In this document: positions 14,710-64,000 of the stretch, one piece after another
Layout: every line of letters begins with the position of its first letter
How positions within the stretch are numbered: the stretch's first letter is position 1
IMG/VR virus record: IMGVR_UViG_3300025131_011243
Location: 1 to 64,000 of that record
DNA from: a virus
Length of the DNA: 64,000 nt
Reading direction: 5' to 3' (one strand)
The notes under the pieces: model-generated
What the model was told of the DNA's origin: nothing
Databases searched by the model: none
What the model saw: the letters and a program-made list of their open reading frames with translations, nothing else
Made by a program: the position numbers and the translations under genes

Positions 14710-15099
14710 CTAGCCTTCAACAACGCCCGCCTCTGTGTCGGCGTATTGCGGGCTACGGCTATCATTTAGCACAAGCTGTATAGCTTGGCCGAATGCCTGA
14801 GTTAAAGCATTGGCAACTTGACTGACAAAAGAGGTATTGCTTTTCTGCCTAAAACTATCTTCCCATGGCGGCAGGATAGTACATTGATTGTTACATTTGT
14901 CCAAGAATCCGGAGAACTTGTCCGGAATATCAACCTCTTGCTTATTCCAGTTCAAAAAAGACTTGCGTTGAGCCTGCTGGCTTAGTTGTCCGCTTGTTTC
15001 GTCGTAGATCCATATGATCACTTGATCGCAATCCGGATCGGTAGAGACGGGCTCTTTATCTAGAGAAACAAAATAATCTGCATAACGAAACCAATTCAT
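14710..15099 (-). CDS. MNW-leader protein, unknown function
   Basis: Starts MNWFRYAD. Confidence 0.75.
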   Translation of the reverse strand: MNWFRYADYFVSLDKEPVSTDPDCDQVIIWIYDETSGQLSQQAQRKSFLNWNKQEVDIPDKFSGFLDKCNNQCTILPPWEDSFRQKSNTSFVSQVANALTQAFGQAIQLVLNDSRSPQYADTEAGVVEG

Positions 15100-16245: not shown

Positions 16246-17907
16246 TTAGCCACTTTGGGGACCATATATGGCCATGATTTCTGACCTAAGATTCAAGACA
16301 AATTGACGAGCTTCTTCTTCATTAGTGACCTCCCCGTTCCTCTGAGCCTCTAGAAGACTGTTTTGGGCCATTCCGATGAATCCCATAGTCTGTCCTTTGG
16401 GCAGATAGTGGGGCTTAAGGTCAGGATACATCTGCATAATTTCCCTACCATCGATAAACGGCTGTCTTGCTTTTTCAGTCATCTCTGCTCGATAAATTTG
16501 CATTGCTTCATACTGCCTGCGCTTCTTCTCAATTCCTTCAGGGGCATTCTCTCGCCCTGTAGCCAATTCATCCGCTGGCCCCAAGATTTGCCATATGAAT
16601 GACCAAGCTTTATCGGCAAGAGCATCGTTTTCTCCTACCATCTTTTTCATCTTGTCACGCATTCTCCCAAAGGCACCGCCCTTAACCTTCAAATCATCCG
16701 TACCCTCTTGTTCTTTCGTGATGTCAGCGTGATGCGCATACATATGGAACGCAACCAAAGTGTTGACAAACTTCCTGTCTTCCTCTGAGATATATCCCAT
16801 AGTTTTAGTAACAGCGTCAGATATCTCCATGGACCTGTTTTCATGCCCCTTGTACGTCATTCTTTCAGGTTCGGTCTCATGGGGCTTTTGGATATCAGGT
16901 GCCAATTTGCCAAGATCGTGGAACACAGCCGCAAGATTAACAAGAGATCTTTCATTATCAGGCAAGCCCAATTCCTTGGCCTTTTTATTTGCTTCCTCTA
17001 TAACCAGCAGCGTATGCTTCATCACATCCCATTTGTGATAAGGAGTCTGCTGATCCATTTCGATAGGTTTAAGATTTTCCGTTTCAGGAGACTTGAACAC
17101 CTCTCTGTACAAACCGGAGGAAAACAGAAGCCTCATTCCTTTTTCCGGATTGTCGGCTGACAACGTCTTTAAGATTTCAGGACCCGCACGTTGCGAATCG
17201 ACGCTTCCATACGAAGCCTGAACTTCAGGATCTGCCATCGCAGCTTCCGTAGCAGGATCAATCGTTGACTGAGGGTAGCGAGCATAGAACCTGGCGAGCC
17301 TCAACATTCTCAGAGGATCGTCACTGAATGTCGTCTTGGGGTCAAGTGGCGTGCGCAACGTCATGGTTTGAAGATCTTGCATTCCTTTCTTAGTAAAATC
17401 TTCTACCTGACCATTCTCTATGTTGTAGAACATGGAGTTGATAGTCAGATCTCTTCGCTCAGCATCTTCTTGAGGCGTCCCCATCATCATTTCTGTAGGG
17501 ATACGTGAGCCAGTTTCATAAATACCTGACGGTTCCTTTCTCATGTTTACAAAATCAATCTTCTGTCCGTCGATTTCGATAGCCGCCGTCGCCAAGTGTT
17601 TTGATTTATCCAAGTTTTGCGGAACGACGTAGGATCCCCCAATCAGACCTCTTGGGACCTGATTCTGTTGGACGTATAGTTTAATTGCTTCAACAAAATC
17701 CTTACCAGTCATTCCTTCAAGAGAAATATCAATATCATCGCTATCTTGATCCATCAACTTATCTCGAACCCATCCTCCGGCGACACGGGGATGAGGATCG
17801 TTAGGAAGCGACTGGGCTACCATCGTAATAACATCGAAAACCTTTCGTTCATGGTCAGTGATAACGATAGGAGATTCGTTTTGAGATACTTTACGATACC
17901 AATTCAT
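16246..17907 (-). CDS. cca: CCA-adding enzyme/poly(A) polymerase family nucleotidyltransferase with HD domain; MNW leader
   Basis: VAGGWVRD, DIDI, EDAERRDLTINS, DDPLRMLR, FHDLGK; start reassigned to MNWYRKVSQ. Confidence 0.92.
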   Translation of the reverse strand: MNWYRKVSQNESPIVITDHERKVFDVITMVAQSLPNDPHPRVAGGWVRDKLMDQDSDDIDISLEGMTGKDFVEAIKLYVQQNQVPRGLIGGSYVVPQNLDKSKHLATAAIEIDGQKIDFVNMRKEPSGIYETGSRIPTEMMMGTPQEDAERRDLTINSMFYNIENGQVEDFTKKGMQDLQTMTLRTPLDPKTTFSDDPLRMLRLARFYARYPQSTIDPATEAAMADPEVQASYGSVDSQRAGPEILKTLSADNPEKGMRLLFSSGLYREVFKSPETENLKPIEMDQQTPYHKWDVMKHTLLVIEEANKKAKELGLPDNERSLVNLAAVFHDLGKLAPDIQKPHETEPERMTYKGHENRSMEISDAVTKTMGYISEEDRKFVNTLVAFHMYAHHADITKEQEGTDDLKVKGGAFGRMRDKMKKMVGENDALADKAWSFIWQILGPADELATGRENAPEGIEKKRRQYEAMQIYRAEMTEKARQPFIDGREIMQMYPDLKPHYLPKGQTMGFIGMAQNSLLEAQRNGEVTNEEEARQFVLNLRSEIMAIYGPQSG

Positions 17908-18271
17908 CTGTCCATGGTCCTTGATGGTCATGCTTTACCTGATTCCTCAACGCCTGTTCAGGGCTATATCTTACTACATTCTGCGGCTTAAACAAGTCGT
18001 AAAAATCAGCATTTTCTATAGACCCTCTACCCGACATATTCATCTGCCAATCGTACACTCTTCCGACAGCTTCTATCCAAGCATGTTCATACCTTTTCGG
18101 CTCTAATGCTAATGGCTCCTCCACCGTTCCGTGACATACGAAAATATTTTCTTCAGGGACGACCCCATCTTCAACCATTGTCCAAGCCAATTCGTTTGCA
18201 AAGGGGAAGCACAGACCGATAGGACAGGTCTCCCGTTCATTGGCCAATTTAACTACTTCATGCCAATTCAT
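17891..18271 (-). CDS. MNW-leader transglutaminase/papain-like protein
   Basis: MNWHEVVKLAN; GLCF, HAWIE, VYD (Cys-His-Asp). Confidence 0.65.
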   Translation of the reverse strand: MNWHEVVKLANERETCPIGLCFPFANELAWTMVEDGVVPEENIFVCHGTVEEPLALEPKRYEHAWIEAVGRVYDWQMNMSGRGSIENADFYDLFKPQNVVRYSPEQALRNQVKHDHQGPWTDELVS

Positions 18272-40554: not shown

Positions 40555-40980
40555 TCACGATACAGAATCAGCAAACTCAATCGCATACTGCTTCGCCTGA
40601 TCCAATGTCTTAGCAGGACCGTCATACTGAGTCTCATTGCCGCTAGGCGTAGCTGCCACAGGTTCATCTCCGATTCCAAAGTTACTCATAGCTCTATGGC
40701 TCCACCCCCACCAGTTCTGACTTTCCTCTTCGAACCCTATCGAGCAAACATCATGATCATCGCATGAAGCCTCTGGAGCTATACCCTTTTCTTCGATAAG
40801 CATCTTGGCTGTTTCCACATCCCCTATGTAGCACCCGCTGTCAGCGTAGGCGGATTCCATTTCCACCCTTCCATCTTCGTCATTACCCACCTGAGTATCT
40901 TCGGTACGAACTTCATAGCCGTCGAATTTTTCTACGTTGAGCACCTTCTTCTTTAACTGAGCTTGTTTATACCAGTTCAT
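40555..40980 (-). CDS. MNW-leader conserved phage protein
   Basis: MNWYKQAQ; CSIGF..WWGWSHRA. Confidence 0.75.
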   Translation of the reverse strand: MNWYKQAQLKKKVLNVEKFDGYEVRTEDTQVGNDEDGRVEMESAYADSGCYIGDVETAKMLIEEKGIAPEASCDDHDVCSIGFEEESQNWWGWSHRAMSNFGIGDEPVAATPSGNETQYDGPAKTLDQAKQYAIEFADSVS

Positions 40981-41506
40981 TGAGATCCTCTTGGGCGGGC
41001 CTTAGACCTTCGCCTTTTACCAATAGTTCAGATTCAGCATACCCACGTTGGAATAGATCTATGACAGCTACAACATCCTGCTTATTAACTACATAAGTAT
41101 CTGGATCAACCCCTTTCTGGGTAGCAAAGAAATTGGCTGTTGACATATCTAAAGTAACAGGAACAACAGGCCCCTTAGGAACCCCTCCTCGATGTACGGT
41201 TATCCACTCTGGCATACCTTGCAATGCCTGCTGAGATAATCTAACAACTTCATCTCTTGCTGCCAAAATTTCATTCCTGAATTCAGGACCATGCATATTG
41301 GCCAGATCTTCCTCGTTTATGCCTAAATCTGAAAGAGCATCATACATATCAACATCATCATCAAACAGATTTGCTATTACATCTGAACCAGATGACGTAT
41401 CCATAAAGTTACCCTGAACATTCAGTAAAGCCTTAAGCCCCCTACTATTAACCTGTTCAGGCCCTAGCTTGCCCGGAAGTTTAGAAGTTTCTTTATACCA
41501 ATTCAT
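40967..41506 (-). CDS. MNW-leader ADP-ribosyltransferase-like protein
   Basis: MNWYKETS; TVHRG, VT...A.FFA, ESELLV (R..ExE pattern). Confidence 0.65.
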   Translation of the reverse strand: MNWYKETSKLPGKLGPEQVNSRGLKALLNVQGNFMDTSSGSDVIANLFDDDVDMYDALSDLGINEEDLANMHGPEFRNEILAARDEVVRLSQQALQGMPEWITVHRGGVPKGPVVPVTLDMSTANFFATQKGVDPDTYVVNKQDVVAVIDLFQRGYAESELLVKGEGLRPAQEDLNELV

Positions 41507-43392
41507 TCTACAACCCCAATCGGTTCGAGTACCGTTCCATCCCAAGTTCTCCATTCGCCCAAAGACGATACCTGATATCCCATAGCATTGGGCTTGGGAA
41601 CAAACTCCATGATCGAAACCTGTTCTGGATCTACCTTCGACAGCCCTACGGCATCGCTCAAAAAGAACAAAGGATTTAAAGGACCACCAGCCTCTTCCCT
41701 GAACGTTATCCACTCTTTGTACAAATCAAAACGCTTGTCAATCAATTCATCCGAAGTAAGCCTTCGACGGAACCTTGTATACTTAGTCTCCACCCCAGTG
41801 CCATGGGGCCATGCTTCTCCCACAGGTTCCCACTCCCATTCGTCCTTCTCATTCTGTTCTTCAACTGTTTTGGGGAAAATGAAAGCGTCTGTATATTCAT
41901 ACCCTTCAAGAGTAGCCTTGATGTCAATTGGCATTTCGTCTGTATCTTTTCTGCTGTGGTAGTAGTAGATATTTTTCAACCAAGGTCTATCCGCATCTTC
42001 CCCCTTTGCTGCCATATCTAACATTTGCTCGATTGAGATTTTATTCTTGGCTACTTTCACGCCATCCAGCAACGAACTCTTGATAGCCCTGGCGACATCG
42101 ATGTCGGTCGTAAAGCTGATCGTATCGCTTGCTCCTCCGCCAAGACCTAATCCAAGACCCTGAGATAATTCTTCTCTGGTCTTCAGACCGCTATTGATAA
42201 CTTCATCTCTTGCTGTCGTTACATGGTACAATCTCTGCGGCAAAGGCTTAACTGTTTCGATATTGCCTACGTTAAGAAGGAGACCTCTGTCCCTTGCAGT
42301 TTGGGGATTTATTTCTCCCCTTCCTATGGCACGTTGCATTTGGCCCTTCCATTCTCTCCTTTTGTTCCACCATTCTTTATAGGCATCCTCATCGTCGCCA
42401 TAGCGTTCATCCCATGGACCGGCATAATCCTTTTCAGACATATCCCAAAGATTGGATTGTGACTCTTTATGCCAGTTCATCTTGTCCGCTTCCATTAGGT
42501 CGGCTGACAGGTCACGCCACGCCAGGTCGATCCACGCCTGTTCATGGGTTCCAATCAGAGCATGGTCCACGCCACTGCCATGGATGCCGCTCTCGTGATC
42601 AGAGATGCGGACCTCGATCACTTCATCGCCCCGATCCAGCGTGACGTATTGGCTGAAGGAGCGGGACGAAGGCTCGGTGTACACACTCCAGCCGTGCGAC
42701 CTTGCCGTGTCCGTGACCGCCGCAACGGCCTGCTCGACCCATTCAACTCGGGCATCGTCATCCGCCAAGTTGGGGTCTATCGCCGGAGGCAGATCAATGG
42801 CTTCCGGCTCGGCTACTTCGGCCTCCTCATCTCCAGGTTGATTGGCTTCTTCGACAAGCTGACGATAATATGATCTAGCCAGACTTTCTCCAGCAGGCGT
42901 CATTTGCCCTAAAATCTGATCTGGTTTTCTATTCTTCATCCATTCAGATAATAGATAAGTACCTATCCCCATACTTTGCATTTCATCCACAACCCACACG
43001 CCAGGAACTCCCCATTCATCAGATACTAGACCCACAGCCTCGCCTTGCTCAAAAGCTACAATAGTGTTATTGTATAAATCCTTGCCTTGCAATCTTATTT
43101 CTTCATCAGTTAAATACAAAGCCAAGCCCTTTTCATCTCTAACTATTTCATCATTATCATCTGTTCGCACGTATTTGTTTTTCTCTCCATTCTGCCTAAA
43201 CTCAATAGGCATATCTCCAAATACCTTTTGGGAATGTAAAACAGGATACCCTTCTATCTGCATCCAAGACAGGCCCTCTCTATCCGCATAATCTTCATAA
43301 GCATCAGACGAGATATCTCCTGTACGATGATGGTCTATGAATTCATCCTCTGTCATATCTGTTACATTTTGTGCAAATTTATACCAGTTCAT
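41503..43392 (-). CDS. MNW-leader fusion: GNAT + GC-rich insert domain + internal MNW + ART-like domain
   Basis: WVVDEMQSMGIGTYLL; VRISDH; internal MNWHKESQ at 42480; LYHVT/ISFTT/GEWR. Confidence 0.75.
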   Translation of the reverse strand: MNWYKFAQNVTDMTEDEFIDHHRTGDISSDAYEDYADREGLSWMQIEGYPVLHSQKVFGDMPIEFRQNGEKNKYVRTDDNDEIVRDEKGLALYLTDEEIRLQGKDLYNNTIVAFEQGEAVGLVSDEWGVPGVWVVDEMQSMGIGTYLLSEWMKNRKPDQILGQMTPAGESLARSYYRQLVEEANQPGDEEAEVAEPEAIDLPPAIDPNLADDDARVEWVEQAVAAVTDTARSHGWSVYTEPSSRSFSQYVTLDRGDEVIEVRISDHESGIHGSGVDHALIGTHEQAWIDLAWRDLSADLMEADKMNWHKESQSNLWDMSEKDYAGPWDERYGDDEDAYKEWWNKRREWKGQMQRAIGRGEINPQTARDRGLLLNVGNIETVKPLPQRLYHVTTARDEVINSGLKTREELSQGLGLGLGGGASDTISFTTDIDVARAIKSSLLDGVKVAKNKISIEQMLDMAAKGEDADRPWLKNIYYYHSRKDTDEMPIDIKATLEGYEYTDAFIFPKTVEEQNEKDEWEWEPVGEAWPHGTGVETKYTRFRRRLTSDELIDKRFDLYKEWITFREEAGGPLNPLFFLSDAVGLSKVDPEQVSIMEFVPKPNAMGYQVSSLGEWRTWDGTVLEPIGVVE

Positions 43393-43856
43393 CAATACCT
43401 CACCATATGAGCAGAACCATCTGAATTCGTTGATTCAATATCAAAACCAAAACGATCCTCCAGAACGTGGACTAACCTTGGATTAATAACCCATAATCTC
43501 ATCATCGTTTTCATATCATACTGACTGCTGAAGCTTTCGTAATACTCTATGGCCTCTTTGATCAGCTTGATTCCTACCAATCCTTTCCCTCTAAATTCCG
43601 GCAAAACAGAAATGTCAAATGAAAACACAGATACGTCATCCTCATTACCCCATCCGCTGGAAATCGCACCAATCACACGACCATCCTCAATAGCCAGATG
43701 AGATAAGTCCTTGGTAGAATCCGGCCTTACTCCACTGTCTTCAAAGACCTTATCAGCTTGATCGGCCAGGTCGTAGATATCCTCATCAAGATCGATGTCT
43801 ATATCATCTTCCAATGAGAACGGAACGATATTCACAGCTTGCTTATACCAGTTCAT
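43392..43856 (-). CDS. MNW-leader GNAT acetyltransferase
   Basis: ISVLPEFRGKGLVGIKLI. Confidence 0.8.
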   Translation of the reverse strand: MNWYKQAVNIVPFSLEDDIDIDLDEDIYDLADQADKVFEDSGVRPDSTKDLSHLAIEDGRVIGAISSGWGNEDDVSVFSFDISVLPEFRGKGLVGIKLIKEAIEYYESFSSQYDMKTMMRLWVINPRLVHVLEDRFGFDIESTNSDGSAHMVRY

Positions 43857-44391
43857 CTTTGTCCTCATTCTGATCTAGAATCATAACAGCATTCGAATCT
43901 GGGTACTTGTTGACGAATCCCATGTCCTCGTACCATTTTCTTAGCTTCTTGGAATTCAATCCAGGTTTCCCTCTGCCAACTTGGCCATGAATGGGAGCCG
44001 GTTCGATAACAACCTTAACTCCAATCTCTTTAGCAACAGACAATAATTGCTGCATAGCTTCATTTCCTCTGCCGGATTTTCGTTCCGAAGGATCGACAAT
44101 AATACCGGAAAGAGTGATTTGATCATCCCTAGCAGAGTAAGAGTCTCCTACCATGACATAGTTCTTATGGGGATATAGATCATTACGAGACAGACCCAGC
44201 TTAACCTTGCCGTCTTGACTGACTAGCGTAGGATAAGTGTAGGATCCAATGTTCATAGCATTGGGGTTCATGCTCAGGTCTTCCATGTTCATGGCTTCTT
44301 CATAAGTCCAGCCATATTCTGCCATTTTATCAGCAATCATTTGGACCAGGTTGACATTGGACTCGGTCTGTGATTCTTTATACCAATTCAT
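43843..44391 (-). CDS. MNW-leader GNAT acetyltransferase
   Basis: IIVDPSERKSGRGNEAM, LRKWYEDMGF. Confidence 0.8.
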   Translation of the reverse strand: MNWYKESQTESNVNLVQMIADKMAEYGWTYEEAMNMEDLSMNPNAMNIGSYTYPTLVSQDGKVKLGLSRNDLYPHKNYVMVGDSYSARDDQITLSGIIVDPSERKSGRGNEAMQQLLSVAKEIGVKVVIEPAPIHGQVGRGKPGLNSKKLRKWYEDMGFVNKYPDSNAVMILDQNEDKDELV

Positions 44392-58731: not shown

Positions 58732-61700
58732 CTATTGGCGGTTATACGCCTGTTTCCATTGAGCGTCGTCGTCGGCTTGCGCCGCAGCCACACGCTGTCC
58801 GAGCGTGAACAACTGCTGGAGTTGTGAGCTAAGCTCATTAGGCTTGGAAGCCTTATACAACTCGTCGCCAACTTCGCTACTAATTACAGGGGCCTTACCT
58901 TCGATTCCCCTCGACGCCGTGTCGAATCCCTTTTGGCTTGCGAACAAAGACTTTTCATAGTCTTTGATCTGAGCAGGTTTGTAAGCCTGAAGCTCTGCTA
59001 CTTTTTGCTGAAGTTGTTCGGACTGGATAAGTCCAGCCTGAATCATTTTTCCAGCTACTCGATAAGCTTCATTCATACTTGCCTCGGATTCCTGTGCATC
59101 GCTACTAGCGATGACGGTGCCTTTGTCTCTAGTTTGTTTCTCAGGGTCGATGTCATTTTCATCTTCATGCCCCAAGAGTTGGTTATCAGCCGGAATTTCC
59201 GGATGATCTTCAGGAGAGTCAGGTTTATCGCCCATACTTTCCTGTTCATGTCCCATCATCGAAACATTACCTTCGCCCTTCACTCCTTCGAGTGCTTCTT
59301 CGTCGCCGTCGCCTCTTGGCTTACGCTTCGAGCCTTCGGGGATACCGGCCAAGTCCTCATTTTTCTGGACTGGCTGAATATCTTCATCTTCATCAACGGG
59401 CTTAGGAGCTTCGAGTTTCTTATTTTGTGCCTCAAGGATTCTGTTTGCCAAAGCATTCATTCGATCCTTGGGGTTTCCAAATCCGTTCATTGCGGCCAGT
59501 TCAGCTTCTTTCTGTAGATCTTCTTCGGATGCAGCCTGTGAAGTACCGGCTCCATCTTCGCCGCCTGTGTAGCGATCATCGCCGCCTGTGTATCCCTGTT
59601 CCTCTTCATGTCCCATGGATGGGGAACCGACAGGAATTTCGGGCTGAGGCTTATCCTGAGGATTCAGGTCTGAAGGCTCTTGCCCGATAGTGGCGTTATC
59701 TCTTGGGACTTCAGGGTCGTTGGCCTTAGGAGGATCTTCATGCCCGATGGTTCCGGCATCTTCTCCGCCCGTATAAGGCTTAACTTCCTCTGAGTCTTGT
59801 ACGTTTTCGTGTTGAATCTGAGTAACTTGAGCTTCTTTATTCTCGCCTTCGATTGCGGCGATGACATCTGAAAGATCCATATTAATCTTTCCTGTTTGTC
59901 CAAAATCTGATCGCATGTTCATGGCTTGAATAAACTCCTGTTCCTGTTCTTGTTCTTCTCCGAACAATCCCGTCTCTGCGGGACGTGCTTCTTCTTCCAT
60001 CAAATCATCGTCGCCTTCTTTGAATTCATCGCCTACAGGAACTTCTGGGTTATCTTCTTCAATAACCTCATCTTCGATTCCTTCTTTTTCTCCAACAACG
60101 TCATCAATTACATCTTCAGCGGCATCTTCTACGACGCCATCTGGGTGATGATCTTCTGCTGCGATATCTTCAGGAGATTCGCCAAGAGCCTCATCGAGAC
60201 CTCGGTCTACTTCTTCAGTTACGCCAGGTTCAGCCTTCTCAAGTTCTGTGATAAGGTCGATGACCTTTTGAGCAACACCTTCGCCTTCCATCATTTCCAC
60301 ACCTTCGCCGCCGACTTCGTCGCCGCCGAATGGATCAACTTCATCATCCAGATCATCGATTCCGCCAACTTCGACTGGGATATCTTCAACTTCGTCAGTT
60401 TCCATCAATCCTGCGAGGTCATCGGCAAATTTATGAACTGGAGAAGCAAGAGCTTCCTTGAGGGAACCGCAACGAGAAACTGCTTCTCTGATTGCGTAAC
60501 CGCTGCGAACCTGATGCTCGACGCACTCTTCGTCGCCGTCTCGTTTGTCCTGCCAGATGCTGGCAAGCTTGACGGCCAATCCATCGGTATAAACGTCTGC
60601 GTTCTTCAACGAACTGCAAACGCAATCGTAAATTGGCTTACCTTCGCAAGGACCACTGAGGGCCAATGCATTTTCGCCAAAACGACGAGCTAGTTTTTCT
60701 CGGCAACTTTCGATTGGAAAAGTACCGGATACTGAGAATGCCTTCTTGTAATCGTCAACAACTGTACCAACCTTACTCGCCAGCTTGTTAAGGCCGGAGT
60801 TCTTGTCGGCTTTAACCTTCATGATGAGATCCGTCTTTTCACGGATGCTCATCTTATCGAAGTCAGCTTCAGCAACATTAAGGGCTTCTAGACCCTTGAG
60901 CAGTTCTTTGCGTGCTCTGCTGCAAGACGGGCATTCATCGCCAGCGATCTTAGGAACCCAACGCCATTCGGCGTAGGCATTCTTAGGATTCTTGGCATCA
61001 ACGGCATACTGAACCATATACTTGGTTCCGGTATCCATGCACATTCTCAAGCCATTTTCAAGCTTAATGGTGTTATTCTTACCTGTGGCAGGGCTAACGC
61101 TGCCAAGTTCGATTTCGCCTTCGGCCAATTTCTGAAGAGCTTCAGGAGTCAGACGAGTTGAGGCAGCGACCGGGATCTGAGGACCTTCGCCCTCTTCCGG
61201 AACCTCAAAGCCTTCGCCTTCGAATCCTTCAGCTTCTTCGGCACCCTTTTCATCAGAGGTAGTACCAGACCATTCCCAAACCTCGACATCGATCTTGATC
61301 GTACCCTTCGAACCGCAGTTATTGCATTCGAACTTGCCGCTGATAACATCAACGTCTTCCGAACCGCAAACCGGGCAGATGGATCCAGGAGGCAGTGGGC
61401 TAAGGTCGCCTTCAAGACCTTCTTCGCCGCCCAATTCATCCGGAGTAGTGCTCAGGCTTTCGACAGGAGCAGCACCGGCATCAGGAGGCTGAGGTAGGGA
61501 AGCGCCAGCACCAGGTGCTTGTGCGGCTCCGCCTTGTCCACCCATTTCGCCGCCGAACATTTGAGCTTCTTTAGTTCGTTCTGCTCTTGCGGCGGTCTTG
61601 GTTTCGGCGTCGTCAGAAGCTACGGGCATTGCCCCACCGGCTCCGCCTCCGCCAGCGACTCCCGCACCCATCATGGGCTTGGGTTCGCCAAGAACATCAT

Positions 61701-64000
61701 CAACAACATCATCGGCAGCGTCTTCGTCGCCAAGGTCGATGTCAGAGCAAGGGCCTTCGTCTTCGCCCATGAATTCAGGACCATCAACACCATCGATAGC
61801 GAGCGAGCCTGCGGCTCCTTCGGGATCGATTTCGATAGTAATAACCTGAGCTTTCTTGTTACCAAGCTGAGCTTGTGCGAACTTGTTGCATGCTTCGATG
61901 AACGGAGCCTTGTCGGCAGGATCAGCACCTACTTCTTTGATCGATGCGTAGATGCGAAATCGACCGTCAAGACCTGAGATAGCGTCGTCCAACGCAGAAA
62001 ACTTGTCAGTGATCGGTTCATCTTCATGAACTTCGCTGAGCTTAGTTTTGACAATTGTGTCAACTTCTTTCATGGCTTCCTTGGAACGAAGAACATGTGA
62101 TACTGATTCGTAAACGTCTTCGACCTTAAGGCCATGCTGAGCGTTGTCGGCAACGGCGAAGATCATGGCATCGAGACTATCTGGAGTTTCGACGCTCTTT
62201 GTAGCCATCTTACGGAAGTAAGAAACATTATTGGCTACGGCAATGCGGTCTTCGCCCTTATGAGGAAGTGCGTTAATCAAGGTTAAGTAAGCGGCCTTTT
62301 CTCGCATATCGTCGTTGTCCTGAATCTTGGAAGCGACTCTGGTCAACTCTGCGGGAGTTCGGTTGTACTTAGCGATTGCATCGGAGATAGCTCCGACAGC
62401 GACCTTAACAACGGCTTGAGCATATTCTCTTGAAGCCCAACGCTTGATGCCGTAATCCTGATTACGCAATTGATCTTCGGTAATCGTTTCATAGGTTCCG
62501 ACAAAGCGGTGGCTACTGAGCAGATCTTTAAGCTGAGCTTCGGTAATCCACTCTTCTTGATCTGTAGAAAGTTTAGAAGCAACGGCACGAGAAAAATCGT
62601 TCCATTGCTTTTCAGTGATGACATCTTGCATATCTTTCCAGCGAACAATGTAGCCTTCAGAGACTACGTCAAGCTGGTCTTCGGTAATCGTTTCATACGT
62701 ACCTCGACGAGTTTGTGGACTTTCGCTGGTTGTGTCATTGACGGGTTCGTTATCTAGACCGAGTTGTTGATCACTCTCGGTAATACCTTCATAGGTATCG
62801 CCTGTTCTTGGGTGAAGGTCTAGGTCATTGGCATCTCGTATTTGTTTTTCAGTAATAACTTCGCCTTGCGAAGCGTCGTCATCTGACGGATTGCCAATAG
62901 ATGCTGTTTTTTCCTGATCAGACATTGTTTCTGACTCCTTGGAATTCCTATTTTCTAATACTGTTTGGGCTGCCTTTTCGACATCCTGCCCAAACAGGCT
63001 TTGGATGTCCTCTGATAATTCAGAAAGGTGAGAGACCTTAAGGACCTCCTCACCTTTAGCTTCTGTTACATATGATCCGTCGAAGGTAACGGAATACCCG
63101 TTATCTCCAGAAACTGTTGTTGTTGACATATTCTTGTCTCTTAAGTTAGAAACAGTGTTACGGACCTCTTCGATCCTTCTTGTGACTTTCGATGCTGCTT
63201 TTATAAATTCCTTCTTTGAATTCAGTAATTCGTTTGACAATTTCGGTTTAGTGATCGTACCGACCCCACCCAAGTCGCCCGTTTCTGACCCTGGCATAGA
63301 TGTTGCCACAGGCTCAGGAGGTGCTTGCGGAGGTGCTTCAGGACCCGCTGGATCTATTAAAGCAGGACCTTCGGATTCGCTAACTACATCTGGAGAAGGT
63401 AGTTGTGAATAACCCATTTCGTTTAATTCGTCTACAAGATCTTGAACTTTCTCCATAGCTTCAACCAGGTCAGACACATACGCCATCGAGATATGTTCTT
63501 TTTGAGACAACATAGAGCGAGTAACTTCTTCCATATTGGTCATTGCATTTTTTAATGCTTCAAGTTCATTAACTCCGGCCTCTTTTTCCATAAGTTCAGA
63601 GTTTACTTTGACAAAACCCTCATCATTAACATTGGATGCCATCTTGACTACTTGAGCACTAAGTTCGGCAACCTTCTGCTGTACCGAAGGTTTATGAAGG
63701 ATGCAATCAACCAAGCAATCATGACAAGCTGGATTAACAACGAACGAATCCTCAATGAACTTGAGTCCGAAGTTATGCTCAAATGCTTGTTGAGCCTGGT
63801 GAACCAGAGTTTTCTTATCGCCCTTTTCTGTTCCGCAAAGAGGGCAACTATCAGTTGGCTTATTGTTACTCTGGTGATATTCGCACTTGTAGTTACCGCT
63901 GAGTTTACGATTCTTCTTCTCTCGAATATGCGAGCAATAGTCTTCTGCTGTATGAGCATGGTTGTGGCATACTGAGCAGCAGCTATAATCCACTGCGCAG
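58732..64000 (-). CDS. giant prohead protease/scaffold protein, 5' end outside the window
   Basis: Frame open to the window edge (CAVDYSCCSVCHN..C.H..FIEDSFVVNPA, protease-like); long acidic and coiled-coil regions; directly upstream of the head genes. Confidence 0.75.
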   Translation of the reverse strand, partial: CAVDYSCCSVCHNHAHTAEDYCSHIREKKNRKLSGNYKCEYHQSNNKPTDSCPLCGTEKGDKKTLVHQAQQAFEHNFGLKFIEDSFVVNPACHDCLVDCILHKPSVQQKVAELSAQVVKMASNVNDEGFVKVNSELMEKEAGVNELEALKNAMTNMEEVTRSMLSQKEHISMAYVSDLVEAMEKVQDLVDELNEMGYSQLPSPDVVSESEGPALIDPAGPEAPPQAPPEPVATSMPGSETGDLGGVGTITKPKLSNELLNSKKEFIKAASKVTRRIEEVRNTVSNLRDKNMSTTTVSGDNGYSVTFDGSYVTEAKGEEVLKVSHLSELSEDIQSLFGQDVEKAAQTVLENRNSKESETMSDQEKTASIGNPSDDDASQGEVITEKQIRDANDLDLHPRTGDTYEGITESDQQLGLDNEPVNDTTSESPQTRRGTYETITEDQLDVVSEGYIVRWKDMQDVITEKQWNDFSRAVASKLSTDQEEWITEAQLKDLLSSHRFVGTYETITEDQLRNQDYGIKRWASREYAQAVVKVAVGAISDAIAKYNRTPAELTRVASKIQDNDDMREKAAYLTLINALPHKGEDRIAVANNVSYFRKMATKSVETPDSLDAMIFAVADNAQHGLKVEDVYESVSHVLRSKEAMKEVDTIVKTKLSEVHEDEPITDKFSALDDAISGLDGRFRIYASIKEVGADPADKAPFIEACNKFAQAQLGNKKAQVITIEIDPEGAAGSLAIDGVDGPEFMGEDEGPCSDIDLGDEDAADDVVDDVLGEPKPMMGAGVAGGGGAGGAMPVASDDAETKTAARAERTKEAQMFGGEMGGQGGAAQAPGAGASLPQPPDAGAAPVESLSTTPDELGGEEGLEGDLSPLPPGSICPVCGSEDVDVISGKFECNNCGSKGTIKIDVEVWEWSGTTSDEKGAEEAEGFEGEGFEVPEEGEGPQIPVAASTRLTPEALQKLAEGEIELGSVSPATGKNNTIKLENGLRMCMDTGTKYMVQYAVDAKNPKNAYAEWRWVPKIAGDECPSCSRARKELLKGLEALNVAEADFDKMSIREKTDLIMKVKADKNSGLNKLASKVGTVVDDYKKAFSVSGTFPIESCREKLARRFGENALALSGPCEGKPIYDCVCSSLKNADVYTDGLAVKLASIWQDKRDGDEECVEHQVRSGYAIREAVSRCGSLKEALASPVHKFADDLAGLMETDEVEDIPVEVGGIDDLDDEVDPFGGDEVGGEGVEMMEGEGVAQKVIDLITELEKAEPGVTEEVDRGLDEALGESPEDIAAEDHHPDGVVEDAAEDVIDDVVGEKEGIEDEVIEEDNPEVPVGDEFKEGDDDLMEEEARPAETGLFGEEQEQEQEFIQAMNMRSDFGQTGKINMDLSDVIAAIEGENKEAQVTQIQHENVQDSEEVKPYTGGEDAGTIGHEDPPKANDPEVPRDNATIGQEPSDLNPQDKPQPEIPVGSPSMGHEEEQGYTGGDDRYTGGEDGAGTSQAASEEDLQKEAELAAMNGFGNPKDRMNALANRILEAQNKKLEAPKPVDEDEDIQPVQKNEDLAGIPEGSKRKPRGDGDEEALEGVKGEGNVSMMGHEQESMGDKPDSPEDHPEIPADNQLLGHEDENDIDPEKQTRDKGTVIASSDAQESEASMNEAYRVAGKMIQAGLIQSEQLQQKVAELQAYKPAQIKDYEKSLFASQKGFDTASRGIEGKAPVISSEVGDELYKASKPNELSSQLQQLFTLGQRVAAAQADDDAQWKQAYNRQ

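Follow-up and report, generated by a model that had tools for sequence, protein, structure and literature searches.

A three-module open reading frame in a marine phage genome

The DNA analysed here (the window; 64,000 nucleotides of IMG/VR virus record IMGVR_UViG_3300025131_011243) comprises the first 64 kb of a single 122,591-bp contig with an overall guanine-plus-cytosine (GC) content of 44.2%. The contig carries several phage hallmarks, namely a portal gene (Portal_Mu, E 6.7e-4, below the cut-off), a capsid-like gene and an intein-containing open reading frame (ORF) of 2306 amino acids (aa). Our subject is a second large ORF of this uncultured marine tailed phage, P0001 (41503..43392, minus strand; stop codon 41503-41505), which encodes 629 aa. 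It sits in a head-to-tail, tightly coupled run of accessory genes, nearly all of which start with a shared peptide leader, MNW[YFH][KRQ]. We take the ATG of MNWYKFAQ at 43392 as the P0001 start; the ORF list has a TTG one codon upstream (ORF 41503-43395). The exact protein is present on 4 contigs, the longest of which is 150,805 bp.

P0001 is built from three modules, each with its own homologies: a GNAT-like acetyltransferase part, a small alpha/beta domain and a part with an ADP-ribosyltransferase (ART) fold. All are on the minus strand. Module 1 (42847..43392, residues 1-182) consists of an MNWYK leader and the GNAT-like domain, and is followed by an acidic linker rich in E, A and P (42790..42846, residues 183-201). 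Module 2 (42481..42789, residues 202-304) is the small domain, and module 3 (41506..42480, residues 305-629) consists of a second, internal leader, MNWHK (42466..42480), and the ART-fold domain. The reading frame is open through both module junctions, and no paralogue of any of the three modules was found in the phage genome. We consider the ORF to be probably a real three-module polyvalent protein.

A break in composition within the ORF

The middle of P0001 stands out by its base composition. Segment 42481-42830 has 61.4% GC, which is 4.7 standard deviations (sd) over the genome mean. Across the 122,591 bp, windows of 350 nucleotides (nt) average 44.2% GC (sd 3.6), with a maximum of 61.7% at the window starting at 42484, and the share of windows at or above 61.4% is 0.00022. 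On a finer scale, the successive 60-nt lines 42481-42540, 42541-42600, 42601-42660 and 42661-42720 have 63.3%, 56.7%, 56.7% and 68.3% GC, while line 42901-42960 has 31.7%. The step at the internal leader is abrupt, from 38.3% in 42421-42480 to 63.3% in the 60 nt that follow. An earlier sequence-only reading of this DNA had described lines of 57-68% GC in 42481-42720 against 32% at 42901, and we reproduce these figures exactly. It had also placed a boundary at the ATG of an internal MNWHKESQ at 42480, which is indeed in frame and coincides with the GC step, and had pointed out the motifs S.SQYVTL and IEVRISDH, both of which occur in the translation. Finally, the in-frame fusion of MNW-GNAT and MNW-ART-like parts that it proposed holds up: there is one open frame, the first part is GNAT-like by sub-threshold Pfam matches and Atlas features, and the last has an ART fold in the structural model.

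Fitted by maximum likelihood, GC content at third codon positions (GC3) changes at codons 189 (support 187-206) and 307 (support 298-313), corresponding to 42828..42472 in the window, and plain GC at 42498..42836. These change points match the leader ATG and the end of the GNAT homology. To account for amino acid content, we calculated the GC3 expected from a segment's residues and the genome's own codon usage. For residues 183-304, GC3 is 0.68 versus 0.41 expected (z +6.3), rising to 0.72 for residues 201-304, and the GC-rich segment provides the top three of 1099 windows of 122 codons each for residue-conditioned GC3. Module 3 is native-like (0.46 versus 0.45 expected, z +0.6), as are the 16 other genes called in 38-48 kb, with z values all between -1.4 and +2.0. 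Module 1, on the other hand, has an unusually low GC3 (0.319 versus 0.447 expected, z -3.7). Since the GNAT part is thus anomalous in the opposite direction, the ORF is a three-way mosaic rather than a native gene pair with one insert.

The genome has three further GC-rich islands, at 57.7-58.8k, 61.2-61.9k and 66.5-67.1k. The latter two have z values below 2 and are accounted for by their amino acid content; windows of the ORF at 58141-58713 reach z 2.7-3.8. Taken together, the data support the conclusion that the segment within P0001 is compositionally foreign at synonymous sites. Its residue content is also of the GC-rich type: the GARP/FYMINK ratio is 2.5 for the segment and 0.97-2.82 for the family of its small domain, compared to 0.83 for the phage proteome, and among 579 windows of the phage itself, 0.9% (5) have a ratio as high as that of the segment. 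This lends indirect support to a GC-richer home for the small-domain family.

A small domain in the GC-rich segment

Homology to a family of small proteins starts at residue 202. A HMMER search of 1.84 billion representative proteins returned 12 matches to the middle part of P0001, 11 of which are free-standing proteins of 97-216 aa, several of them with an N-terminal cysteine-rich region; the twelfth, an 869-aa repeat protein, was taken as spurious. No other fused form of the domain was found among these 1.84 billion proteins. The best match (E 1.5e-27) is a 108-aa protein whose residues 9-102 align with P0001 202-295 at 52% identity, indicating that a whole small gene is embedded and not a fragment. 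The homology stops nine residues short of the internal methionine. These matches support the view that the segment encodes a complete small domain, one that would otherwise occur only in free-standing small proteins.

The domain is predicted to fold as a helix, four strands and a helix (AlphaFold2, mean predicted local distance difference test (pLDDT) score 86.4) and has the motifs S.S.Y and R.SDH. Within the family, W36, G52, W53, Y67, R80 and H84 are invariant, and S65, R72, G73 and D83 nearly so. No Pfam family covers the domain, and the Pfam LPD models match none of the 12 family members at E ≤ 0.1. PHROGs yielded only phrog_5307, in 3 of the 12 members and with a best E of 0.012, whereas PDB sequence profiles gave no meaningful match and Foldseek no PDB match at E ≤ 0.001. 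The best Atlas score of 0.80 is a lead only. Among predicted viral structures, the best match is A0A6J7WQ17, annotated as 'Large polyvalent protein associated domain' (E 7.5e-4, template modelling (TM) score 0.48 on the query). A search of Rfam with 42200-43100 (E ≤ 1) returned 0 matches.

The nearest solved structures are restriction-endonuclease-like, namely VRR_NUC 4qbn_B (Z 6.0), Hjc resolvases (Z 4.7-5.5) and I-Ssp6803I (Z 4.6), which raises the alternative that the domain is itself a selfish mobile element, a nuclease-like gene comparable to free-standing homing endonucleases, that inserted itself between two genes. The phage does carry other homing elements, a LAGLIDADG intein and a free-standing LAGLIDADG gene. 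However, the structural matches are all below Z 8, a range that the structure tool itself calls common arrangements, and the acidic pair plus lysine of PD-(D/E)xK nucleases is not conserved among the family's invariant columns (W, G, W, Y, R and H). Nor is the segment bordered by a target duplication: no direct repeats flank it, and the short repeats that are present were read as acid-patch coding repeats. We therefore find self-insertion of a mobile nuclease gene improbable. A probable role for the small domain is that of a binding or adaptor module.

The GNAT-like and ART-fold modules

The best Pfam match of module 1 is Acetyltransf_7 (E 0.003, 18.5 bits, cut-off 27), and three other GNAT models match more weakly, so that all are sub-threshold. 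Atlas features give a score of 0.95, with 185 shared features and GNAT annotation for all ten of the best named clusters. The residues Q139-S-M-G142-I-G144 fall in invariant columns of an alignment of relatives (A1) and match Q/R-x-x-G-x-G/A, which we take to be the acetyl-CoA-binding motif of the GNAT superfamily. This supports a GNAT-like module 1 with predicted acetyl-CoA binding.

Relatives of module 1 comprise five proteins and 20 metagenome loci, on contigs of 28-60% GC, in which the GNAT module occurs alone or fused to a kinase-type P-loop domain, to unknown domains or within giant proteins of up to 1700 aa. All five protein relatives have a conserved C-terminal tail, A..GK.VP..VL..YP, which is also readable in nearly all of the 20 locus ORFs and is absent from P0001. 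Alignments to module 1 stop at P0001 residues 179-202 in 17 of the 20 loci; in the other three they run on at low identity. Neither the middle domain nor the other enzyme module is present within ±10 kb in any of the 20 loci. With its closest relatives on contigs of 30-40% GC and its own GC3 low, the GNAT part may have been imported as well, from the low-GC side.

For module 3, an AlphaFold2 model (mean pLDDT 80.5) was compared with 48,161 chains by VIA-align. Most of the 50 best rows listed are ART-fold proteins. The best, 9ld3_A (Z 8.7), is matched over the same range as the tRNA 2'-phosphotransferases (rows 3, 5 and 27); the diphtheria-toxin catalytic domain has Z 7.2 and tRNA 2'-phosphotransferases 7.1 and 7.0, followed by Rhs ART toxins, PARPs, Arr and DarT. 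Foldseek gave no PDB match at E ≤ 0.001, a Pfam scan of P0003 (E ≤ 1) listed no ART model, and no profile match to any solved chain was obtained. The predicted structure supports an ART fold for module 3. In an alignment of 10 relatives (A6, module numbering), H86, G114-G-G116 and S122-F-T124 are invariant and E309-W-R311 is nearly so. H86, S122-F-T124 and E309 are candidate counterparts of the ART triad positions (H-Y-E/D or R-S-E).

Module 3 has 25 protein relatives of 178-569 aa. The closest, P0034, is the product of a separate 324-aa gene, located on contigs of up to 36 kb, that starts with MNWYK, and its residues 1-324 align with P0001 305-629 at 68% identity. In P0034, P0035 and P0037, the protein's own residue 1 aligns with P0001 residue 305. 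Of the 25 relatives, 9 have MNW[YF] at residue 1, another 4 have it or a near-identical version somewhere in their first 7 residues, and 2 have it internally. In IMG/VR, module 3 also forms part of large polyvalent proteins that lack the leader, on contigs of 48-71% GC, making exchange across GC classes plausible in this network. The middle domain and the other enzyme module are absent within ±4 kb from all 15 ART loci, and no protein was found to match any part of P0001 at an identity between 68% and 100%. In the GC-rich relatives of the ART module (P0009, P0013, P0015; L029-L031), the polyvalent modules are spaced by other short motifs that recur, H.DHDQ.SHG.W or GHPFRGNQ[WY]T, and not by MNWYK.

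Continuity of the sequence across the junctions

A sharp change in composition within one ORF could arise if the assembly had joined the DNA of two organisms. We checked 118 sampled words of 42100-43200 across sequencing runs. Four runs contain 118/118 words, all four being flagged as possible sources of this DNA, and small shares of the words occur in runs X8-X24. A 4197-nt X1 contig matches 40500-43495 throughout, with 0 differences. Contigs of X5, X6 and X7, which come from other studies and are dated 2025, 2025 and 2019, bridge 42480 with 0 differences, and additional X5 and X6 contigs lie within the GC-rich part, again with 0 differences. The lower junction is thus not an assembly chimera. 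For the upper junction, an artefact could still appeal to the fact that, among the pieces listed, it is crossed only by a contig of a possible-source run; stretches without contig cover in X5-X7 are not evidence of absence. With the frame open through both junctions and contigs of three other studies crossing 42480 without difference, we rejected a chimeric origin as exceedingly improbable. The sequence-only reading had asked for spanning reads; contigs that span the lower junction exist in independent runs (X5, X6, X7), and among the pieces listed the upper junction is spanned in a possible-source run only.

Identical sequence is present in contigs of runs dated 2017, 2019 and 2025, showing that the arrangement is established in a widespread population. 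One X5 contig matches the GC-rich side, loses its likeness exactly at 42481 and then continues with 42 other GC-rich letters. Read in frame, these encode an acidic stretch that resembles the linker preceding the domain. Seen in one contig only, this suggests that the linker-plus-domain unit may exist in another context too.

Origin of the mosaic

With a probability of roughly two in three, P0001 arose when a foreign unit of linker plus domain recombined between a GNAT gene and the following leader-tagged ART gene, yielding a three-module protein in one frame. The donor of the acidic linker and the complete alpha/beta domain of ~100 aa would be a genome with a much higher GC3. Insertion would have taken place between the 3' end of the GNAT gene and the ATG of the next leader-tagged (ART-fold) gene, and would have removed the usual GNAT tail of ~20 residues, the stop codon and the normal overlapping gene junction. 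Because the incoming unit would have lacked a stop codon, all three parts came to be read as one frame. The retained internal leader may still allow a separate ART module to be made or released, via internal initiation or processing. The data show the break in composition, the separate homologies of the modules, their unfused state in relatives and the continuity of the DNA across the lower junction; the direction of the transfer, the age of the event and the GC content of the donor are inferred. The protein is likely to be a host-takeover or counter-defence effector, which would pair an acetyl-CoA-dependent acetyltransferase with an NAD+-using ART-fold enzyme.

The sequence-only reading had likewise proposed capture of foreign DNA at a leader junction, and this is borne out by the composition, by the free-standing homologues of the small domain and by the location of the edge at the first codon of the ART module. 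Its further suggestion that the event was recent and the DNA not yet ameliorated is not supported by the data: the best relative is at 52% identity, and the same sequence is present in runs from 2017, 2019 and 2025. A high-GC donor would agree with GC3 and with the GARP/FYMINK ratio, but donor DNA was not found. blastn of 42300-43000 against phage records gave no match, nor did tblastn of P0002 and P0023 against phage records at E ≤ 1. Scans of viral contigs with P0001 and the small-domain alignment A4, and of genome contigs with A4, returned no donor or close relative. A word-indexed protein search with P0002 yielded 46 candidates, 0 of them at E ≤ 0.001; this search also missed P0016, a relative of the small domain, so it is not evidence of absence. 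As for the two genes that the fusion should have joined, the ART module is indeed separate in P0034 and the middle domain is absent from the GNAT loci, but no unfused or insert-free variant of this phage came to light.

Several observations weigh against recombination of a foreign unit. No donor was found, and protein identity between the segment and its nearest relative is no higher than 52%. Close phage relatives at 70-95% identity, with or without the insert, were not found, so that polarity and age cannot be read from comparison. The linker shares scattered identities (A, G, E, E, D, L; about 8 of 25 positions) with the native tail of the GNAT relatives, which makes the exact upper break point ambiguous within codons 183-202, and the upper junction has the narrower contig support described above. 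GC3 is over-dispersed in this genome (per-gene z sd 1.8): capsid-gene windows and gene 110495-111562 reach z 4.4-4.9, and the segment's z of 6 is therefore extreme yet not isolated.

The z values reached by native genes would also fit an explanation in which the arrangement is old and the middle domain a long-standing resident, its high GC3 resulting from slow amelioration, from local codon or mRNA constraints or from its acidic, alanine-rich content. GC is high at codon positions 1 and 2 of the segment as well (0.575 in the top window), runs from 2017 to 2025 contain one and the same sequence, and no insert-free variant was seen, all of which an old arrangement would accommodate. On the other hand, the residue-conditioned GC3 excess is the largest in the genome, the break from 38% to 63% GC across 42480/42481 is sharp, and the 1.84 billion representatives include no other fused form. 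An mRNA constraint finds little support in the predicted RNA fold, which does not stand out from that of shuffled sequences (z -1.74, equalled by 7 of 100 shuffles). Long residence thus seems to us the unlikelier account, albeit a more serious contender than a mobile nuclease.

Capture of a foreign unit by recombination, our preferred reading, is a usual form of module shuffling in phages, except that the junction is unusually clean. Rapid shuffling of domains is assumed to drive the evolution of polyvalent effectors, and the joints seldom come to light in so clear a form. In P0001, the points at which three modules of different codon composition adjoin can be identified, and one of them is the first codon of a conserved leader, which makes the locus a concrete case of how phages assemble multi-enzyme counter-defence proteins.

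The leader motif and gene junctions

The leader shared by so many genes of this phage is probably a more important question than the mosaic ORF itself. In the genome, 25 ORFs of at least 60 aa start with ATGAAYTGG; 2 of these lie inside the giant ORF and are probably spurious. This leaves ~23 genes with an N-terminal MNW[YFH][KRQ], often followed by x[AS]Q, and with no obvious Shine-Dalgarno sequence before the ATG. In window region 14000-53000, leader ATGs are at 15099, 17907, 18271, 18734, 19159, 20354, 21040, 22356, 26261, 26881, 33440, 35245, 40980, 41506, 42480, 43392, 43856, 44391, 44473, 47271, 50691 and 52862, and outside the window there is one at genome position 96106. The MNWHKESQ ATG at 42480 (minus strand) is in frame, with 318 open codons upstream. 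Synonymous positions within the leader vary (AAT/AAC, TAT/TAC/TTC/TTT, AAA/AAG), suggesting that the peptide, and not the DNA alone, is constrained. The leader may act in targeting, processing or translation. Where Pfam was tested, the functions of the leader genes are unrelated: GNATs, Tad6, a PolyA_pol-type nucleotidyltransferase with HD domain, a DnaJ domain and a 5'-nucleotidase-like protein.

The junctions between leader genes are compact. Five have a 4-nt ATGA overlap, including that of the P0001 stop with the next gene at 41506. Three (40967-40980, 43843-43856 and 18258-18271) have a 14-nt overlap in which the end of the upstream gene, ..ELV* or ..ELA* (the asterisk marking the stop), is read from the leader sequence itself in the -1 frame. 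One junction (17891-17907) has a 17-nt overlap and one, at the start of P0001, a 1-nt overlap; at 42480 there is no in-frame stop. Many relatives of the GNAT module end in ..EYELV, implying that the ..ELV* overlap junction exists in other phages. In relatives, the leader motif also recurs within fused proteins as a module delimiter, three times in a 1024-aa protein of locus L004 and further in L006, P0008, P0007 and P0039, and the contigs on which it starts or delimits modules range from 28 to 60% GC.

These features allow a tentative, broader proposal, in which the MNW[YF]K leader would be a common border of portable cassettes in many uncultured phages. Polyvalent proteins in which NWYK recurs internally would be arrays of fused cassettes, and the GC-rich unit a linker-plus-domain cassette in transit. 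The ~15 conserved nucleotides of the leader would provide micro-homology for exchange between co-infecting phages. The leader would also carry the stop of the upstream gene in the -1 frame (..ELV*), so that a small change at a junction could fuse or split neighbours. The X5 contig that departs at 42481 would then be another array with the same cassette. In run X1, contigs of higher depth (24-29 versus 7.65) touch the window over 20-23 nt only, at the leaders 40980, 43392 and 44369-44391; a weak reading of these is that they belong to other, more abundant phages of the same sample that share leader DNA.

Neighbouring genes

Immediately downstream of P0001 is a leader-tagged gene for a 179-aa protein (MNWYKETS; 40970..41506, minus strand) without a Pfam family, whose ATG overlaps the P0001 stop. 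Upstream is a leader-tagged GNAT of 154 aa (MNWYKQAV; 43395..43856, minus strand; Acetyltransf_1, E 9.9e-6, 26.3 bits, cut-off 20.7), the stop of which overlaps the P0001 ATG by 1 nt. Two genes downstream of the mosaic ORF lies a leader-tagged gene of 141 aa (40558-40980, minus strand) that is Tad6-like and matches the Pfam family 'Type I Thoeris inhibitor' with E 4.5e-35 (121 bits, cut-off 27). With this gene and further GNATs, the neighbourhood would point to host takeover or counter-defence. Other leader-tagged genes encode the CCA/poly(A)-polymerase-type enzyme with HD domain, the DnaJ-domain protein and the 5'-nucleotidase-like protein. The ~100-aa domain family without annotation (R.SDH) and the GNAT plus ART-fold pair, near a Tad6-like Thoeris inhibitor, are anti-defence candidates.

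Some further features lie in the structural gene region. The 2306-aa ORF (58732-64000, extending to genome position 65652, minus strand) lies between the capsid-like gene and the portal gene. Its residues ~150-551 are an intein that includes a LAGLIDADG endonuclease (LAGLIDADG_3, E 6.8e-15; Intein_splicing, E 7.8e-9), and the part before the intein presumably resembles a prohead protease. A free-standing LAGLIDADG_2 homing-endonuclease gene (56049-57035, minus strand, E 5.3e-17), with a C-terminal MerR-type helix-turn-helix, adjoins the capsid-like gene. The portal protein, outside the window at genome positions 66166-68439 (minus strand; L021:10170-12440), matches Portal_Mu weakly and has an endonuclease-like domain (DUF559 / REase_MTES_1575) at residues 628-696 (E 1.5e-8).

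Comparison with known systems

The internal proteins of phage T4 and Alt carry capsid-targeting sequences. The MNW leader resembles these in being a short N-terminal peptide shared by many otherwise unrelated accessory proteins of one phage. However, a CCA/poly(A)-polymerase-type nucleotidyltransferase and a DnaJ-domain protein, neither of them typical capsid cargo, are among the leader-tagged products, and the motif is also found inside fused proteins.

The predicted fold of module 3 resembles Tpt1/KptA, DarT, Arr and the diphtheria-type and Rhs toxin domains, with which residues 76-325 align at Z 8.7-6.4. The modelled likeness covers 78-101 aligned residues with root-mean-square deviations of 2.4-3.2, and the histidine in the first conserved strand (LYHVT), which is invariant, may be a further likeness to ART enzymes. 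Module 3 differs from these enzymes by its low sequence identity of 10-18% and a large helical insertion.

The closest parallel to P0001 as a whole is provided by the phage polyvalent proteins, in which one GNAT family typically has an adjoining ART domain on the same polypeptide (Iyer et al. 2017, PMC5512222). Like these, P0001 is phage-encoded and joins several unrelated effector-type domains, with a GNAT beside an ART-fold domain and a small uncharacterised domain, possibly of the 'LPD' type, between the enzymatic ones (PMC5512222). As with LPD1-LPD40, module 2 is a small globular domain of undefined function, of a kind that occurs both alone and within polyvalent proteins; its tie to LPDs themselves is the one structural match to A0A6J7WQ17, as against no Pfam LPD match for the 12 family members. 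Domain order varies among polyvalent proteins: in the relative P0007, the ART-like part comes first and the GNAT second, the reverse of P0001, and the two are joined by ..SWYKRAQ... There are also differences. The ART module of P0001 has no Pfam ART match and its GNAT is under the Pfam cut-off, and where the Tox-ART-HYD2 clade of PMC5512222 has an H, Y, D configuration, the second position in P0001 is S-F-T. Moreover, the P0001 modules are delimited by an N-terminal-type MNW[YF]K, a motif that text searches of open-access literature and passages of PMC5512222 did not yield, the domain tables of which may already name the GNAT, ART or small-domain families. P0001 is a further variant on the known phage theme of polyvalent GNAT plus ART effectors.

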